In this document: piece by piece, positions 1,193 through 20,713 of the stretch
How positions within the stretch are numbered: position 1 is the first letter of the stretch
Layout of the letters: every line of letters begins with the position of its first letter
Virus record (IMG/VR): IMGVR_UViG_2537562021_000003
Location: 1-20,713 of that record
DNA length: 20,713 nucleotides
DNA from: a virus
Lineage: Duplodnaviria; Heunggongvirae; Uroviricota; Caudoviricetes
Reading direction: 5' to 3' (one strand)
Notes under the pieces: model-generated
The model's input: the letters and a program-made list of their open reading frames with translations, nothing else
What the model was told of the DNA's origin: nothing
The model's database searches: none
Made by a program: the position numbers and the translations under genes

Positions 1193-2224
1193 TTACATGT
1201 TATTCGACAAGTATATAAAGTTCAAAGGGTTTTTCGTTACTGCATCTTCCAGATGGTCTGGAGAAAAATGGGCGTAAATCATCGTCATTTTTATATCGGC
1301 ATGGCCCAAAATATCGCGCAGTACCAGTATGTTTCCGCCGTTCATCATGAAATGGCTGGCGAATGTATGGCGTAGAACGTGGGGGCATTGTCCCTCTGGC
1401 AGTTCAATACCAGCTCGTTTTACTGCCCGTTCAAAGGCTTTTCTGCATGGGGTGAATAGCCTTCCTCTGTTTTTAGGGAGTTCGTTGTAAAGATCCTGAG
1501 ATATTGGCACGGTACGGTTTTTCTTGCCCTTCGTCTTGGTATAAGTGATGCGGTATTTGGATAACTGATGGCCCTGCAGATTTTCTGCTTCACTCCACCG
1601 TGCGCCAGTAGCTAGGCATATTTTTGCAATCATTAGTAAGCTAGGGCTTTGAGATTCAGCACATGCCGCCAACAGGCGCTTGATTTCGTCCGTGGAAAGA
1701 AAAGCCAGCTCACCTTCGGCAATTTTGAAGGTCGGAAGTCCTGCCAGCGGGTTTGGTGCTGACCAGTGTCCTAGTTTTTTTAATGTACCGAACACCGATG
1801 ATAGATTGCGCTGTTCAAGGTTTACCGTGCGGGGCTTAACGGGCGACATAAGCGTGCCATCTTCATTTCGTATTTCACCTTTTAACCGTGCTTCGCGGTA
1901 TTTCGTAAAGTCTCCGGCTGTCAGCTCAGAGGCGATGGGGTCGCCTAGACCATTACAGATAATTCTAAGTTTCGCCATGAGGCGCTTGGGGTCTGCGAGT
2001 GTCTGACCATACAGGGAATACCAAAGCTCAATTAATTCTGATAGGCGTCGCCGATCATCCTTTTCACCCAACCACGGTTTTTTATTCACTTCTTCCATTG
2101 TGAAGCTTTCAAACGCAATGGCTTCGCCTTTCGTGGCAAATTGCTTACGCACGCGCTTGCCATTGCGTCCATTGGGATAGCACTCACACAACCATTTTCC
2201 GTTCGGCTGTTTTCTGATGGTCAT
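1193..2224 (-). CDS. int: Tyrosine recombinase, P2/186-type phage integrase
   Basis: 343 aa; C-terminal HVLRHTFASHF...LGHADIKMTMIYAHF fits the H-x-x-R...Y catalytic motif. ATG at 2224 lies 1 nt after the cI stop. Confidence 0.9.
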   Translation of the reverse strand: MTIRKQPNGKWLCECYPNGRNGKRVRKQFATKGEAIAFESFTMEEVNKKPWLGEKDDRRRLSELIELWYSLYGQTLADPKRLMAKLRIICNGLGDPIASELTAGDFTKYREARLKGEIRNEDGTLMSPVKPRTVNLEQRNLSSVFGTLKKLGHWSAPNPLAGLPTFKIAEGELAFLSTDEIKRLLAACAESQSPSLLMIAKICLATGARWSEAENLQGHQLSKYRITYTKTKGKKNRTVPISQDLYNELPKNRGRLFTPCRKAFERAVKRAGIELPEGQCPHVLRHTFASHFMMNGGNILVLRDILGHADIKMTMIYAHFSPDHLEDAVTKNPLNFIYLSNNM

Positions 2225-2225
2225 A

Positions 2226-2858
2226 TCAAAGGCTCTTAATGATTTTCAGTGCGCGGCCTACTACCTCAATGTCATCCAGACCGCACTCAAACGATGAATC
2301 ATCCTGATGCACTACTAATTTGTTTCCCGGGAGTCGAGTCAATTTAACGATGCTTTTTATCCCGTCGATATCGACTAACCACATACCATTTACTGGTGGT
2401 GTTTGGTTGCGATCTATTAAATAAGAATCACCAGAAGTAGTCACCAGCAGTAGGTTGCTTGAGTCTGAGGGGAGTATGCTGCTATCAATGATTGCTTTTC
2501 CAGCATCGACCAATAAACCACCGTTGAGAGTCGCCTTGTCAATTTCAGGAGATACTAGTTCAGAAAGAGGTACAACCTTGCTGGAGTTCACGGAATTGAT
2601 ATTTTTTTTAGGTTCAATGTTTGGACCTGGCTCCCCCTGTCCGGTGGTTAGCCACAGTAAAGAAACTCCTGTTTCCAAGGCGCACTGAATCACCCACTCT
2701 GCAGGAAAACTATCTCTTAAGTATCTGTTTGCCATGGTGCTTTTTGATGCGCCTAAGTGATCGCAAAGTTGCTGTCTGGACTTGAAATCATAGGCTGCCA
2801 TTAGTCTATGGATAGCCTCTCTTCCCCCTGTATTCTCTCCAACCTTTACCTGTATCAT
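2226..2858 (-). CDS. cI: 186-type CI immunity repressor
   Basis: 210 aa; N-terminal AYDFKSRQQLCDHLGASKSTMANRYLRD...CALETGVSLLWLTTGQGE looks like the CI-repressor HTH. Divergent from the pR operon and directly upstream of int. Confidence 0.75.
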   Translation of the reverse strand: MIQVKVGENTGGREAIHRLMAAYDFKSRQQLCDHLGASKSTMANRYLRDSFPAEWVIQCALETGVSLLWLTTGQGEPGPNIEPKKNINSVNSSKVVPLSELVSPEIDKATLNGGLLVDAGKAIIDSSILPSDSSNLLLVTTSGDSYLIDRNQTPPVNGMWLVDIDGIKSIVKLTRLPGNKLVVHQDDSSFECGLDDIEVVGRALKIIKSL

Positions 2859-8160: not shown

Positions 8161-8180
8161 TACTGTAAATATAAACAGTG
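8161..8180. promoter_or_regulatory. LexA (SOS) box
   Basis: TACTGTAAATATAAACAGTG: CTGT-n8-ACAG with an AT-rich spacer, 44 nt upstream of the ATG at 8222. Confidence 0.65.
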
Positions 8181-8221
8181 GTTATACATACAGTGTTGCG
8201 TGTGGTGTCATAGGAGGAAAG

Positions 8222-8410
8222 ATGCAGGACTATTTTTTGGAGTCTTTGAAGCTCCAGCGCATTGATTTTTTTCTTAAGCTTGTAGCGGCTAGTGAGTGTA
8301 GTGATGAAGAGAAGGGGCTGGCTCTGCAGTGGGTTTCTGAATTGACTGATGAACTCATGGCAAAAATCAGAAGCCACGAATACAACCGCTCAATGGATGT
8401 CATCAGCTGA
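8222..8410 (+). CDS. Small SOS-controlled protein, candidate antirepressor N-terminal part (Tum-like by position)
   Basis: 62 aa with strong SD AGGAGG at 8212..8217; its stop overlaps the SD of the DinI-like gene. Confidence 0.55.
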   Translation: MQDYFLESLKLQRIDFFLKLVAASECSDEEKGLALQWVSELTDELMAKIRSHEYNRSMDVIS

Positions 8411-8420
8411 GGTGACTTTT

Positions 8421-8654
8421 ATGCGCATTGAAATAATGATCGATAAAGAGCAGAAGATTAGCCAGTCTACCTTGGACGCCCTTGAATCCGAGCTTTACCG
8501 CAATCTGCGCCCCCTGTATCCCAAAACGGTAATCCGTATCCGTAAAGGTAGCTCTAACGGTGTGGAACTGACCGGACTGCAACTGGACGAAGAAAGAAAA
8601 CAAGTGATGAAAATTATGCAGAAGGTGTGGGAAGACGACAGCTGGCTGCATTGA
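8421..8654 (+). CDS. DinI-family protein
   Basis: 77 aa; MRIEIMIDKEQ...IRKGSSNGVELTGL...VMKIMQKVWEDDSW parallels E. coli DinI as I recall it. SD GAGGTG at 8409..8414. Confidence 0.75.
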   Translation: MRIEIMIDKEQKISQSTLDALESELYRNLRPLYPKTVIRIRKGSSNGVELTGLQLDEERKQVMKIMQKVWEDDSWLH

Positions 8655-8707: not shown

Positions 8708-8741
8708 GAGGCGATGTCAATCAGATATCGCCTTGTTTTTT
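8708..8741 (+). terminator. Candidate intrinsic terminator after the DinI-like gene
   Basis: Stem AGGCGAT (8709..8715) / ATCGCCT (8727..8733) then TTGTTTTTT; the loop is long (11 nt), so weak. Confidence 0.4.
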
Positions 8742-8767
8742 GTCAAGAAAAGAATAATAGGCTAAAA

Positions 8768-9445
8768 ATGAAAATTAATAATGTAGCGTTACCAATATCT
8801 CTTGCTGTAATCCTAACTGGTTGCGTGCCACATGCTTCTAACCGAAATATCACTGCTATTGAAGTGGTGAAGCCTGCTATTGGGCAAAGTGCTACCGCCT
8901 ACATGGGCGATCCCATTATCACATCTGCTACTGGATTTAAAACGGACGTACTAGAACTTGGTGCGGCTAATGGTGCATTGTCTTCTATCGCTGCTGGTAC
9001 ATATTGCAGTGAGGGGAATGGAATTTACCGCAATTATCATAACCCTCAAGCTGTTGCGTTAAAAAATCTCTATGGGCAAATCGGTAACTATGTTGATTAT
9101 GTTAGTTACGATGCTGCAAAAAATGAGATATCACCGCCAAATGGTACTTCTTATACTGCATCAGAAATTTCTATCAAACGTGTTCCTGATGGGCTGTGTC
9201 GAGTTAGTAACTCATTGGTTAAGACTATCGAATACAATGGAAATGCAGGCGGTGTAATGAAGTTCACCTATCGTGAATTTGCAAACGATATGGCTCGTGC
9301 AGCATTTACAACAGATTTTTCTGTAGATTCTAAGGGAAGTGACGTTATCGCTTACAAAGGTGCCAAGTTCAAAGTGAACAAGGCTGATAACTCGTCTATT
9401 TCTTATACAATTATTTCTGGCTTTGACAAGGCTGTCACGTTCTAG
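8768..9445 (+). CDS. Lipoprotein of unknown function (cargo)
   Basis: MKINNVALPISLAVILTGC is a signal peptide with lipobox LTGC; AT-rich codon usage. The track's upstream start at 8714 lies inside the terminator hairpin. Confidence 0.65.
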   Translation: MKINNVALPISLAVILTGCVPHASNRNITAIEVVKPAIGQSATAYMGDPIITSATGFKTDVLELGAANGALSSIAAGTYCSEGNGIYRNYHNPQAVALKNLYGQIGNYVDYVSYDAAKNEISPPNGTSYTASEISIKRVPDGLCRVSNSLVKTIEYNGNAGGVMKFTYREFANDMARAAFTTDFSVDSKGSDVIAYKGAKFKVNKADNSSISYTIISGFDKAVTF

Positions 9446-9574: not shown

Positions 9575-9618
9575 CGTAGATCATGCAGGTGCATGAAAAC
9601 CACTACATAAAGCGGGCA

Positions 9619-9637
9619 GGCGTGGCGGGGATACGAG
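9619..9637. other. cos-like packaging site (P2/186-type cohesive-end sequence)
   Basis: GGCGTGGCGGGGATACGAG: the first 13 nt match the 186 cohesive end as I recall it (GGCGTGGCGGGGAAAGCAT). GC-rich patch between accessory genes and the portal gene. Confidence 0.45.
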
Positions 9638-9864
9638 CGCGCGCCGCGGGTTGAAATAGTAAAATTCACTTAGCCTCAGGCCCGCTGATGGTTTTCTTCT
9701 GAAAGGGAGGGCGCGTTTTTGTGCAATCTTGTTTGAAGGGATTTAAATAAATGTTGAATGTGTTCCGGAGTTGGCTGTAGATTTAGTGTTCTGCCACAAG
9801 TTGCAGTGATAGGTAGCAAACCTTTAAAAGGTTCTGCTATTGTTTCATTAAAGATTTATAGTCT

Positions 9865-10464
9865 TTGTCCGAAAATGACATTAAAGTAGTCGCCTTTAAT
9901 GTCGTAAGCATGAAGGACAGAGAATTGAACTTAGAGCAGATTGCCAGTCAAAGTATAAGTAACCTTCAGTTTCTCCTCGATACTTTGAAGATGCCGTTGG
10001 CTGTTGGTCCAATCAGTGATGAAGACTATGTGATCCTGACCACAGGATACGCTCAGCTAGAATGGGATTATGGTTTTTCTCGGTTTGGCAATCGAAGTGA
10101 TAAGTTTGAATTTTGTTTGAAGCTCCTTGCGGGGCCACTTAGGCATATCCCTTCTGGCGCAGCTATGTGCACCTTTGACGAGGACGCTGGAGTCATAGAG
10201 ATCCATTTTGTGGAATCTTTTGTGAAAGATGATGACGTAGAGCACCCTCTTTACGGCAACATGTTCATGGTTACATTGTGGGCGGTATATCTTTTTGGTA
10301 GCGCGGTTGGGTGTCAAGAGATTCGGATCCCTGAAGCCCTGAATCAAAAAGTTGCTGACCACTATAAAAAATTTGGTTTTAAAGGTGATATAAGCTTGCT
10401 TTCGGCACCTTTTGCTACAATAACTGATGTAGTAAGACGCTACATTACTTCTAAGAAACAGTAG
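9865..10464 (+). CDS. Hypothetical cargo protein; C-terminus possibly GNAT-like
   Basis: 199-aa ORF from TTG 9865 (or 184 aa from ATG 9910); no strong SD for either. IRIPEALNQKVADHYKKFGF resembles GNAT motif B; no clear motif A. Confidence 0.5.
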   Translation: MSENDIKVVAFNVVSMKDRELNLEQIASQSISNLQFLLDTLKMPLAVGPISDEDYVILTTGYAQLEWDYGFSRFGNRSDKFEFCLKLLAGPLRHIPSGAAMCTFDEDAGVIEIHFVESFVKDDDVEHPLYGNMFMVTLWAVYLFGSAVGCQEIRIPEALNQKVADHYKKFGFKGDISLLSAPFATITDVVRRYITSKKQ

Positions 10465-13000: not shown

Positions 13001-13256
13001 AAGGAAAATCTGGTTACGCCCGGTTACCGGAGAAGTGCAGGCCGTGGAGCTTGTGGTGCGTGGACGTCACAAAGAAGTGGATTCCGGCGAGTGGAAGACG
13101 GGCGAAAGCAACACCACCAAAGTGACCAGTACCAACAGCTACGCGAAGCTGACCATCAATGGTGAGGTGCTCTATGAAGTGGACCTTATCAACATGGTGG
13201 AAATTGTGGACGGTGTGGACCTGATGGAAGCGCACCGCAACGCCCTCGGCCTCTGA
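12987..13256 (+). pseudogene. Tail tube (gpFII) C-terminal fragment
   Basis: ...TGEVQAVELVVRGRHKEVDSGEWKTGE...INGEVLYEVDLINMVEIVDGVDLMEAHRNALGL resembles the FII C-terminus; in-frame stop at 12984..12986 and no N-terminal half. Confidence 0.55.
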
Positions 13257-18396: not shown

Positions 18397-18464
18397 AGTG
18401 TTCTCAATATTGATATTTTGTGTATCATTACAATGATTCTGATAGCAAAGGTAGGGATCTGGAT

Positions 18465-18683
18465 ATGATGAATTGTCCGAAGTGTGGTCATGCGGCGCAC
18501 ACAAGGAGCAGTTTTCAAGTAACAGAAAGCACCAAAGAGCGTTACTGCCAGTGCCAAAATATTAACTGCGGGAGCACTTTTGTTACCCATGAAACAGTGG
18601 TCCGGTTTATTGTGACACCTGCATTGATTGCTACAGCCCCTCCACATCCATTACCAGGTGGTCAGGGGCATATGAATTTTTGA
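18465..18683 (+). CDS. ogr: Ogr/Delta-family zinc-finger late transcription activator
   Basis: MMNCPKCGHAAHTRSS...TKERYCQCQNINCGSTFVTHETV...PHPLPGGQ parallels P2 Ogr (about 72 aa, CxxC...CxxxxC). Upstream part of the track ORF is non-coding. Confidence 0.85.
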   Translation: MMNCPKCGHAAHTRSSFQVTESTKERYCQCQNINCGSTFVTHETVVRFIVTPALIATAPPHPLPGGQGHMNF

Positions 18684-18690
18684 GAAAGAG

Positions 18691-18714
18691 AACCTGCTAC
18701 GGCAGGGTTTTATT
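18691..18714. terminator. Hairpin between convergent ogr and the WYL/BRCT-like gene
   Basis: CCTGC TACG GCAGG followed by TTTTATT on the + strand. Confidence 0.45.
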
Positions 18715-19192
18715 CATCTGGGATCTCACCCGTTTCAAGAAAATGTATAAAGCCAGGCTCATCTATGATGATTGTGCCTTTCATCCTGGCTGCCGATACT
18801 TTTGATGGGCCTGCATTGTAACCGCAACAGAGCATCTGAAGGCTTTGGGTTACAGAGGTTCTTACCGTTAATCCTTGTTCATTCGCCTTATCAACCAATC
18901 TTTCTTTATCTGCTTTCTTAAATCCGGTGAAGCACACATCGAATGTATTTTTTTTCGGACCAGACTGCTTAGTGAGATGTGAGTAGTTTTCGGGGAGGAA
19001 TGACGCGCATTCCTGAATGGCTTGTTCTGGTGAATCGTACTGTTTAAGAATGCGGTCTTTTCGGAAGGTTTTTATTCGATCGGTGTTCTTACAAATGCCC
19101 TGTATATGATTTTCGCTATAACTGATGCTCTGTATAGAGTGAACAGCGATACGACCATTTGCATTGATGTAAACAAAGTGAAGTTCTTCCAT
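18710..19192 (-). CDS. Cargo protein with WYL-like N-terminal motif and BRCT-like C-terminal domain
   Basis: 160 aa with SD AAGAGG 6 nt upstream. CFTGF...GLTVRTSV...GPSKVSAARMKGTIIIDEPGFIHFL parallels the LigA BRCT domain as I recall it; N-terminal G-x-C...RIKTFRKDRI resembles the WYL-domain end signature. Confidence 0.6.
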   Translation of the reverse strand: MEELHFVYINANGRIAVHSIQSISYSENHIQGICKNTDRIKTFRKDRILKQYDSPEQAIQECASFLPENYSHLTKQSGPKKNTFDVCFTGFKKADKERLVDKANEQGLTVRTSVTQSLQMLCCGYNAGPSKVSAARMKGTIIIDEPGFIHFLETGEIPDE

Positions 19193-19315
19193 GTGAAACC
19201 TCTTTGCATGATTTCAAGATGGCGACAGGCAAGATGGACGAAAAAGTCTGTCGCCATTTTGCCGCCACTACCAAAGAAAAAGGGGCTACGCTTTCACGTA
19301 ACCCCTTGATTTATT

Positions 19316-19360
19316 TGGTGGAGCTGGCGGGAGTTGAACCCGCGTCCGAAATTCCTACAT
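19316..19360 (-). other. Attachment-site core: 3'-terminal 45 nt of ssrA (tmRNA), not a complete gene
   Basis: TGGTGGAGCTGGCGGGAGTTGAACCCGCGTCCGAAATTCCTACAT is the reverse complement of the E. coli tmRNA 3' end (recalled); the match stops at 19361 where AT-rich phage sequence begins. Confidence 0.75.
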
Positions 19361-19486
19361 ACTATTTTTAATACAATGAAAACAGTAGTTTGCGTTTAAA
19401 AACAGTGTGTTACTATTATCCTGTGTTTATCCGTTTTACGCATTTTTAATGCTCTGCCGCCAAGTTGTCGCCAATTTTAGGCTAAC

Positions 19487-20500
19487 TTACGGTTGGCTGT
19501 TTTTAACATTCAAAAGAAAGTTCTTCCAAATTATTAGCAGTGAATTTTTATCTAAATCAATCTTATGAGGTTTGATGTTTTTTCCTTCATATATATTTTT
19601 ATAATAGCAATCGATAGCAAAATGAATAGTTAAATTATCTGGATGTATGGCTAGTAGACCTCGGTCAAGCAAGGCATGAAGGGTAGGTTCAAGAGGTATT
19701 CCATTGTTGGTTCTATGGTTTTGGGTCTGAGAAAATGGTTCAAGGTGACATGCCTGCAATACTGGGAGGTTGTAACCTGTTATTGCGCATACATTTGAGA
19801 AGTTTTTTAGAACCCTTTTTTTAAAGTCAACCTGTTCGCCAGAGTCACGCTGTAATACTGTTTGCAGATGAGTATTGCCTTTTGTGACAACTGGTATACT
19901 AATTGTATCAGAGGGATTTATAAATATGACTGGCGGTAGAGTAGGTTCTAGAATGTTTTTTTGTCCAAGAAACTGCCTTGATAATAATTCATCTTTAGCG
20001 ATTTTTATTGCTTCACTTTTTGTTAATGAAAGGCATGCCAGATTATACGCATCTACATTGAAATATTTAGTTTCCCTGTTTAGCGTAATGGATGATATTT
20101 TTTTATCGTGTTCTGCTATTGGTATACCTTTTGTGACAGGATGCGAAATGCTTTCAAGCAGTGTTGTATTGCCATTTATTTCTTTATTAAACAATGAGGT
20201 AGGGTGTTCAATCATATTGCTATGCTTGGCGCGATAGTGCTCATATAGGCCATGAGCACTTTTGAAATTTTTCTTGCATATTATACAGCTAACATTTCCC
20301 CCATTAATTTTTTTTGAATTTCTTTTTCTGGATTCAACAAGAGAGTTTGTTAGATCTTCTCTTAGTTTTAATATTCTGAGGTTGGTTGGGTTGTTTCCTC
20401 GTCTATATGGTAAGCTCTCAAGTCTATTTAACTCATTTTTGAGGTGTTGGTACTGTTTACGTGAAATTAAATTAGGTTTCATATTTAAGATTAAGATCAC
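19487..20500 (-). CDS. Second copy of the zinc-finger/HNH-like nuclease gene
   Basis: Identical 337-aa translation to 157..1170. Confidence 0.6.
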   Translation of the reverse strand: MILILNMKPNLISRKQYQHLKNELNRLESLPYRRGNNPTNLRILKLREDLTNSLVESRKRNSKKINGGNVSCIICKKNFKSAHGLYEHYRAKHSNMIEHPTSLFNKEINGNTTLLESISHPVTKGIPIAEHDKKISSITLNRETKYFNVDAYNLACLSLTKSEAIKIAKDELLSRQFLGQKNILEPTLPPVIFINPSDTISIPVVTKGNTHLQTVLQRDSGEQVDFKKRVLKNFSNVCAITGYNLPVLQACHLEPFSQTQNHRTNNGIPLEPTLHALLDRGLLAIHPDNLTIHFAIDCYYKNIYEGKNIKPHKIDLDKNSLLIIWKNFLLNVKNSQP

Positions 20501-20522
20501 TTTTGTGTACTTACATTATAAG

Positions 20523-20713
20523 TTACATGTTATTCGACAAGTATATAAAGTTCAAAGGGTTTTTCGTTACTGCATCTTCCAGATGGTCTGGAGAAAAATG
20601 GGCGTAAATCATCGTCATTTTTATATCGGCATGGCCCAAAATATCGCGCAGTACCAGTATGTTTCCGCCGTTCATCATGAAATGGCTGGCGAATGTATGG
20701 CGTAGAACGTGGG
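20523..20713 (-). CDS. int: Integrase, C-terminal part of a second copy (truncated by window end)
   Basis: Identical to 1193..1383, encoding the catalytic C-terminus. Confidence 0.8.
   Translation of the reverse strand, partial: HVLRHTFASHFMMNGGNILVLRDILGHADIKMTMIYAHFSPDHLEDAVTKNPLNFIYLSNNM

Follow-up and report, generated by a model that had tools for sequence, protein, structure and literature searches.

A stand-alone protein with WYL-like and BRCT domains in the lysogeny module of P2-like prophages

The DNA analysed here, positions 1 to 20,713 of IMG/VR virus record IMGVR_UViG_2537562021_000003 (Caudoviricetes; 20,713 nucleotides, the whole of which is referred to as the window), is a P2/186-like phage genome (Peduoviridae). 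Between the late activator gene ogr and the core of the attachment (att) site it carries a gene for a protein of 160 amino acids that is predicted to join a WYL-like domain to a BRCT domain (the WYL-BRCT gene; Table 1). The last 1383 bases of the window (19331-20713) are an exact copy of the first 1383 (1-1383; 100% identity), and because of this identity the window is either a circular genome whose ends overlap as written or the junction of a tandem, with a unique length of 19,330 bp; it begins within the att core. On the circular map the repressor gene cI, the integrase gene int, an HNH/zinc-finger cargo gene, the phage attachment site attP and the WYL-BRCT gene follow one another in this order on one strand. 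An earlier note, made from the letters of the window, had placed a 160-residue protein with its own Shine-Dalgarno sequence on the opposite strand in an AT-rich patch between ogr and the att core, and this description held in each part: the open reading frame (ORF) and its AGAGG motif lie as claimed, and the G+C content is 0.41-0.44 across 18400-19400 compared with 0.55-0.60 in the tail genes. The Shine-Dalgarno region of orthologues is likewise purine-rich. ogr and the WYL-BRCT gene are convergent and share a small hairpin (18693-18706) that lies between them.

Comparative evidence marks the ORF as a real gene under strong purifying selection and rules out a chance ORF, because it matches phrog_2561 over its full length (E=4.6e-77), has 122 homologues in a set of 5.8 billion proteins, belongs to a family of 2643 cluster representatives (exhaustive search, E<=1e-3; clusters defined at 50% identity) and has a ratio of nonsynonymous to synonymous substitutions (dN/dS) of 0.09 against its counterpart in Escherichia phage Cartapus. 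Against 70%-identical orthologues the proportion of nonsynonymous differences (pN) is ~0.19, with synonymous sites saturated. RefSeq protein WP_000391794 ('BRCT domain-containing protein') is a member of the same family as phrog_2561 and represents the same gene in E. coli prophages inserted at ssrA, the gene for transfer-messenger RNA (tmRNA).

Table 1. Features of the WYL-BRCT locus and of the lysogeny genes in the window
Feature	Position	Strand	Basis or remark
WYL-BRCT gene, 160 aa	18710..19192 (stop codon 18710-18712)	(-)	ATG start; ORF list, phrog_2561, homologues, dN/dS
Predicted WYL-like (Sm/SH3-like) five-stranded barrel, residues 1-53	19034..19192	(-)	
Two short helices and flexible linker (pLDDT down to ~66), residues 54-84	18941..19033	(-)	structure model, LigA profiles
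Predicted BRCT domain, residues 85-156, conserved ETGEIP tail	18725..18940	(-)	
Shine-Dalgarno AGAGG	19199..19203	(-)	6 nt ahead of the ATG of the WYL-BRCT gene
Inverted repeat overlapping three TGYCGCCA motifs, putative P' arm	19215..19267	(.)	motifs at 19220-19227 (-), 19249-19256 (+), 19260-19267 (+)
Intrinsic-terminator hairpin, 12 pairs and T-run	19270..19307	(-)	directly after the CCA end of the ssrA copy
ssrA 3'-end copy (…GGACGCGGGTTCAACTCCCGCCAGCTCCACCA), attP core	19316..19360	(-)	tmRNA gene ends exactly here in integrated prophages
Second TGYCGCCA pair, 11-bp spacing, putative P arm	19455..19473	(+)	other side of the core
HNH_2 and zinc-finger cargo ORF	19487..20500 (identical copy 157-1170)	(-)	variable slot between int and attP
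Integrase (1193-2224) and 186-type CI repressor (2226-2858)	1193..2858	(-)	head of the leftward string cI-int-HNH-attP-WYL-BRCT
ogr late activator	18465..18683	(+)	Pfam Ogr_Delta 1.5e-20; span set by comparison with Cartapus

An AlphaFold2 model built from a 32-sequence alignment (mean predicted local distance difference test score, pLDDT, 90.4) contains five strands (residues 3-52), two short helices (55-73), a linker of lower confidence and a beta-alpha-beta-beta-alpha-beta-alpha unit (85-154). The model thus shows a divergent WYL-type barrel, a short helical linker and a predicted BRCT domain that is of the RFC1/LigA kind and has kept its phosphate pocket. The earlier note had proposed a WYL-like N-terminus and a BRCT-like C-terminus; structure prediction, which might have returned neither fold, returned both.

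For the C-terminus the sequence signal is weak, with Pfam PF00533 matching the window protein at E=1.1e-3 and 19.5 bits, under the 21.3-bit cut-off, but the proposed BRCT domain is backed by the predicted structure, a four-stranded parallel sheet with flanking helices, and by the wider family: Pfam BRCT was matched by 28 of 32 close relatives (E<=0.1) and by 40 of 47 longer relatives (E<=1e-3; best 7.5e-21). The best sequence matches of this part in a profile search of the PDB were the BRCT domains of RFC1 (2.2e-5) and LigA (6.2e-5), and a Foldseek search of viral models (BFVD) was dominated by LigA C-termini, the other matches being unnamed proteins. LigA profiles also place part of residues 54-84 on the stretch just ahead of the LigA BRCT domain. 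Across the 32 sequences, the phosphate-pocket positions T89, G90 and K131 are invariant and K96 nearly so; they align to the TG...R...K positions of RFC1, and the window protein thereby shares the T-G...K/R...K pocket pattern of RFC1 (p140) and LigA. In those proteins the module accompanies clamp-loader or ligase catalytic domains, whereas here it stands alone and is predicted to bind 5'-phosphates.

The N-terminal domain was identified by fold comparison only: the closest solved folds to the predicted barrel are WYL domains, while its sequence gave nothing significant against the PDB (PafC E=2.1, PafBC E=2.2). Pfam WYL (PF13280) did not match the window protein at E<=1, and the WYL model of PADLOC matched it at E=0.04; Pfam WYL was matched by 4 of the 32 close relatives (best 1.5e-5) and by 26 of the 47 longer ones (best 1.2e-8). 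The barrel retains the strand T42-F43-R44-K-D46-R47-I48; Y8 and T42 are invariant and F43 nearly so, with R44, D46 and R47 (FRKDRI) present in most members. The W-Y-L triad itself is H-I-Q in the window protein, with a family consensus of Y-I-Q. The WYL domains of CapW and DriD bind single-stranded DNA (ssDNA), and in CapW two arginines that flank the triad in an RWHVR motif contact it (PMC11662680); the window protein has no such flanking arginines. The fold, the family matches and the FRKDRI strand therefore speak for the WYL assignment of the earlier note, and the triad and flanking arginines against it; the domain is filed as WYL-like and divergent.

Pfam and structure prediction gave no helix-turn-helix (HTH), WCX, nuclease, ligase or other catalytic domain in the 160 residues. 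CapW, BrxR, DriD and PafBC have an N-terminal winged HTH (wHTH) and a C-terminal WCX dimerisation domain, both absent here; with its barrel starting at residue 3 and a BRCT domain next, the window protein is not a transcription factor of the wHTH-WYL-WCX type. Both of its modules are sensor types already known. The combination of WYL and BRCT domains was already included in a 2014 survey of domain architectures (PMC4012209); we did not find described the structural support for both domains, the placement in the immunity module of Peduoviridae, the rearranged version beside ssrA, the membrane-anchored subfamily or the leader reinterpreted as attP.

Family architecture was counted on the best 150 of the 2643 cluster representatives. 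Stand-alone WYL-BRCT proteins account for 84; N-terminal transmembrane (TM) helices, one to several, are present in 42 and other N-terminal extensions in 8, and 16 have C-terminal extensions, 4 of these with TM helices, giving 46 membrane-anchored members in all (~30%; 42 N-terminal, 4 C-terminal). Basic residues follow the last TM helix in the sequences read, which suggests that the WYL-BRCT module of these anchored variants is on the cytoplasmic side. Some relatives have two WYL-BRCT modules. No enzymatic or effector domain was found in the N- or C-terminal extensions by PADLOC or by Pfam, which gave WYL and BRCT only on 63 longer relatives. Two recurrent kinds of C-terminal extension, domains fused to the module, had no Pfam or PADLOC match, one of ~230 residues (P0154, P0131, P0177, P0189, P0195) and one of ~130 residues (P0199, P0223, P0259, P0185); of these two, one has the pattern ...PRR..LIA.F..GYA.GW.F.V...LDIK...WTQG... 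and the other the terminal pattern ...GDVFY...WL.TG..P....

As an accessory gene, the WYL-BRCT gene recurs in the lysogeny (immunity) module of P2-like prophages. A repressor gene, the WYL-BRCT gene and often int follow one another on the same strand in most of the lineages. The gene lies directly behind CI in Yersinia ruckeri (8-bp gap), behind a CI-like repressor in Mannheimia phage PHL101 (4-bp gap) and behind an HTH repressor in Vibrio PV94; the order is CI, WYL-BRCT gene, int in Xenorhabdus; HTH_3, Flk_N, WYL-BRCT gene, int in Serratia; and XRE repressor, hypothetical gene, WYL-BRCT gene in Burkholderia phages. A metagenomic membrane-anchored variant follows an HTH+S24 repressor, a C-terminally extended variant stands in the order HTH_3, 268-aa gene, WYL-BRCT gene, int, and a Pseudomonas phage with lambda-like structural gene labels has the gene behind an S24 repressor. 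A GTDB scan (one genome per species) recovered 48 loci: an upstream repressor on the same strand was found by tblastn in 17, and the ogr/gpD arrangement of the ssrA type in 6. Among 32 same-strand upstream neighbours, Pfam gave 8 CI-type, 8 HTH_3 and 7 Peptidase_S24 proteins; MrcB_N, AbiGi and HNH genes are among the upstream neighbours at the other loci, and in a Pseudothioglobus element an Mrr_cat gene lies just downstream of the family member. Beyond P2-like prophages (L010, 6503-7519; L027-L064), Mrr_cat, MrcB_N, AbiGi and HNH genes are neighbours in integrative elements, a defence-island-like setting. The relatives are not morphogenesis genes, the ordinary identity that the earlier note had allowed for. 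The type of the upstream repressor varies (186-type CI, HTH_3, S24-cleavable), so that a dedicated partnership with one repressor is unlikely. The HNH gene of the window was rejected as a fixed partner, as its slot is filled by a RES-domain gene in Cartapus and elsewhere is empty or has different genes, with the WYL-BRCT gene present all the same.

The window belongs to a lineage in which this module has been rearranged. Its attP core is a copy of the 3' end of ssrA; ARAGORN and Rfam called no RNA gene in the window because it holds only 45 nt of ssrA. At least 80% of a 1.1-kb stretch around the locus is present in 169 of 5426 complete E. coli genomes (~3%), and in the integrated copies listed the identity to the window ends at ~19360, inside ssrA. 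The E. coli locus examined in detail has smpB, ssrA, 123 bp and the WYL-BRCT gene on a single strand, the last convergent with ogr; the tmRNA gene, a ~125-bp spacer and the WYL-BRCT gene also stand in this order in Erwinia, Klebsiella, Plesiomonas, Tatumella and Citrobacter, at ~70% protein identity. Given the order cI, int, cargo, attP, WYL-BRCT gene on the circle, integration in the ssrA lineage leaves the host tmRNA gene and the WYL-BRCT gene on one strand, the latter ~125 bp downstream. Between cI and the WYL-BRCT gene stand int, cargo and attP, and in the integrated prophage the two genes are at opposite ends. In the E. coli ET734 chromosome (NZ_CP100922.1, 1187596-1188695) the junction is uninterrupted and of attP type (ogr, WYL-BRCT gene, attP, HNH, int, cI), as would be seen if prophage copies lay in tandem or an excised circle had been assembled; this record annotates many of its genes as frameshifted.

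The earlier note had assigned two inverted repeats to the leader of the gene. Both exist, at 19215-19228/19248-19261 (14 nt, 93% complementary) and 19280-19290/19297-19307 (11 nt, 91%), but they read better as parts of attP than as regulatory leader elements of the gene. The second was counted by a terminator scan as 12 pairs including G-T, followed by a T-run. When the ~125-bp spacer between ssrA and the gene was aligned across six genera, this hairpin (19280-19307) and its T-run were found to be kept in five genera, with one compensatory change of G-C to A-T; it is the phage-supplied terminator of the tmRNA gene that is reconstituted in the lysogen. The other repeat overlaps copies of TGYCGCCA, of which the window has 12 against 1.9 expected. 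Five of these cluster at the core as two tandem pairs (19249+19260 and 19455+19466, each with 11-bp spacing) and an inverted copy at 19220. Five genera share the pair at 19249+19260, GTGGCGGCAAAATGGCG, but not the inverted third copy beside it. Since TGYCGCCA pairs flank the core on both sides, a layout typical of integrase arm-type sites, they are probably the arm-type sites of attP. Position 19473 is the exact end of the similarity to Cartapus, SEN8 and RE2010. In a transcript of the leader, should there be one, the predicted fold at 19193-19215 (-) pairs UGAAAUC with GGUUUCA and covers part of the Shine-Dalgarno sequence; the 153-nt leader fold has z = -5.7 against shuffled sequences, mostly from the tmRNA T-arm, the terminator and the arm-site repeat.

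A promoter scan of 18600-19600 found no sigma-70-like promoter upstream of the WYL-BRCT gene, so transcription in the integrated state must depend either on a non-consensus promoter or on transcripts that run through the ssrA terminator; in the circular genome, the cI-int transcript crossing attP can supply it. There is no LexA box near the gene. The sole perfect box in the window, TACTGTAAATATAAACAGT at 8161-8179, lies ahead of a DinI-domain (Tum-like) gene (ATG at 8223 or 8349, end at 8654; module 8161-8654), and this is a 186 Tum-type SOS-controlled antirepressor module, an SOS induction route already in the phage.

What the protein does has to be judged from its domains and its setting. 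That it might sense DNA damage or infection, as the earlier note suggested, is plausible. The reading that we place first, though only tentatively, is a role within the lysogeny module in which the protein may bind ssDNA, or DNA junctions with a 5'-phosphate, and keep foreign DNA out or block it. The protein would be produced in the lysogen and would bind a DNA structure that combines ssDNA (via the WYL-like barrel) with a 5'-phosphate end or junction (via the BRCT domain), structures that occur on foreign DNA as it enters, is replicated or is processed. Because it has no effector domain, it would work stoichiometrically, by occupying or tethering its target, and the result would be superinfection exclusion or defence of the lysogen. 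Such a mode would resemble other non-enzymatic exclusion genes that stand beside prophage repressors. Exclusion genes adjoin repressors in K139 (glo), lambda (rexAB) and lactococcal phages (sie2009), and Tin of P2 is a non-enzymatic example; together with the P2 genes tin, old and fun these follow the same logic of an accessory gene co-oriented with the repressor, and membrane anchoring of some WYL-BRCT relatives is a further likeness. They have no sequence or fold kinship with the WYL-BRCT protein, and exclusion is proposed here by analogy.

Exclusion was ranked first because the place of the gene is kept whatever the type of upstream repressor, self-cleaving S24 proteins included; because in the ssrA lineage it is physically apart from cI after integration; because the phage already has a 186-type SOS route (LexA box and Tum-like gene); and because exclusion would account better than a repressor cofactor for the membrane tethering and for the defence-island type of neighbours. 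Several points weigh against it. The WYL ligand face is only partly conserved (H-I-Q, CapW-type arginines missing), so that something other than ssDNA may be the ligand; phosphopeptides and other proteins are also among the ligands of BRCT domains; and the place beside the repressor would equally suit a regulator of the lysis-lysogeny decision. The stretch from the terminator to the gene has no consensus promoter, so that expression in the integrated state of the ssrA lineage can only be presumed. The family is not a PADLOC defence system: PADLOC v2 gave partial BRCT and WYL matches only. Among these, candidate PDC-S48 ends in a BRCT part of ~70 residues that resembles the BRCT domain of this family (1.7e-7 against the window protein and down to 2.6e-13 against relatives), with only positions ~335-406 of 411 matched and the rest without a counterpart. 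Finally, a search of the literature on WYL and BRCT domains in prophages, defence and superinfection found no experimental work on any family member.

A bolder version of the exclusion reading, which we regard as decidedly unlikely in its full form, would make it an exclusion system of P2-like prophages that consists of a single protein and no enzyme: a WYL-BRCT clamp, tethered to the membrane in about one-third of the family, that caps ssDNA/5'-phosphate junctions on foreign DNA as it comes in or replicates, for example by out-competing ligase or recombination loaders, and whose expression is rewired by integration. In the ssrA lineage, integration would cut the gene from the cI-int transcript and set it behind the very strongly transcribed tmRNA gene, and read-through of the phage-supplied terminator would drive it in the integrated state only.

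The alternative with the most in its favour, though we consider it somewhat unlikely, is a modulator of lysis and lysogeny that senses damage-derived ssDNA or gaps and tunes prophage induction. It might relay a signal to the repressor or integrase, or compete with RecFOR/RecA at gaps with 5' junctions and so damp SOS and spurious induction; RecFOR recognises 5' junctions of double-stranded and single-stranded DNA. In many lineages the gene lies immediately downstream of the repressor, sometimes 4-8 bp away, and the WYL regulators DriD, PafBC and CapW are damage sensors activated by ssDNA. A 2026 preprint moreover reads Roseobacter prophage cI and BRCT modules as damage-responsive switches, without experiments (PMC13345283). 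Against this, both self-cleaving S24 repressors and 186-type CI are found with the gene, the LexA-box/Tum-DinI module weakens the case for a further induction sensor, the gene is separated from cI in the ssrA lineage, the window protein lacks an HTH, and the anchoring of ~30% of relatives in the membrane sits poorly with a repressor cofactor.

Improbable, in our judgement, is a helper in the phage's own DNA transactions, which would bind nicked, gapped or cohesive-end phage DNA when the phage integrates or excises, circularises or replicates by rolling circle; it might, for instance, protect ends or assist Int at attP. The WYL-BRCT gene does adjoin int or attP in most contexts, its start lies ~25 bp from the last putative arm site, and the BRCT domain with its preceding helices resembles the C-terminus of NAD-dependent ligases, which act on nicks. 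This is an accessory gene, however, carried by only 28 of 50,697 phage records, none of them named P2 or 186; it is transcribed with lysogenic rather than replication genes, and membrane-anchored variants and members outside prophages exist.

Very unlikely is a counter-defence decoy that would soak up the ssDNA signal de-repressing WYL-controlled host defences of the BrxR/CapW type, or mimic a LigA/RFC-type BRCT domain to block a host factor; the presence of sensor-type domains with no output, structurally like modules of CapW, BrxR and LigA, speaks for it, but the gene belongs to a lysogeny operon and not to the early lytic genes, some members adjoin defence-type genes in non-phage loci, and nothing ties the gene to BREX or CBASS hosts.

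That the protein is an enzyme as labelled in databases, 'DNA ligase' in PHROG and RefSeq or 'putative exonuclease' in the Cartapus record, can hardly be entertained, as the LigA and exonuclease matches cover only the BRCT ends of the models (20-26 bits against cut-offs of 389-444) and 160 residues leave no space for an adenylation or exonuclease domain. LigA (TIGR00575) is matched at model positions 548-650 of 652 with 19.8 bits against a 444-bit cut-off, and the DEDDh exonuclease model (NF004719) at 229-307 of 331 with 26 bits against 389; neither the adenylation domain with KxDG, OB fold, Zn finger and helix-hairpin-helix (HhH) of the former nor the DnaQ-like exonuclease domain of the latter is present in the window protein. 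Because these matches are confined to the C-terminal BRCT region, the ligase labels (PHROG; RefSeq for PHL101 and 500465-1) and the exonuclease label are mis-annotations, that of phrog_2561 being inherited from BRCT similarity.

WYL domains are known to sense ssDNA and, by way of an HTH to which they are attached, to switch regulons for defence and DNA damage; here a domain of this kind is joined to a BRCT phosphate-binding module only. The family is large and often membrane-anchored, and in the P2-like prophages of gamma- and beta-proteobacteria it has a stable place in the immunity module. If phage exclusion or the tuning of induction were true, an effector-less mechanism would be added to prophage-encoded immunity, and a widespread 'DNA ligase' mis-annotation would be corrected; the protein is small, soluble and easy to test.

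Elsewhere in the window the nearest phage is Cartapus, with 90-97% identity over most aligned segments and 83% over the first 143 nt. The slot between int and attP, which holds the RES-domain gene in Cartapus, encodes in the window a 337-aa HNH_2 protein with a C2H2-like zinc finger (phrog_20585) and weak similarity to phosphorothioate-dependent restriction enzymes, likely a defence or toxin cargo. At 13024/13025 there is a clean 14-kb deletion relative to Cartapus, with the large-terminase gene (Cartapus 3114) now fused to the tail-tube gene (Cartapus 17128) and the capsid, lysis, baseplate, fibre and sheath genes lost; the element in the window is a defective derivative or a mis-assembly. 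Between the DinI and portal genes, two AT-rich ORFs without Pfam matches (8714-9445, 243 aa; 9865-10464, 199 aa) surround a cos-like site at 9587-9666 and are without similarity to the Cartapus genes there, a position which we take to be the P2 old/tin-type cargo hotspot.

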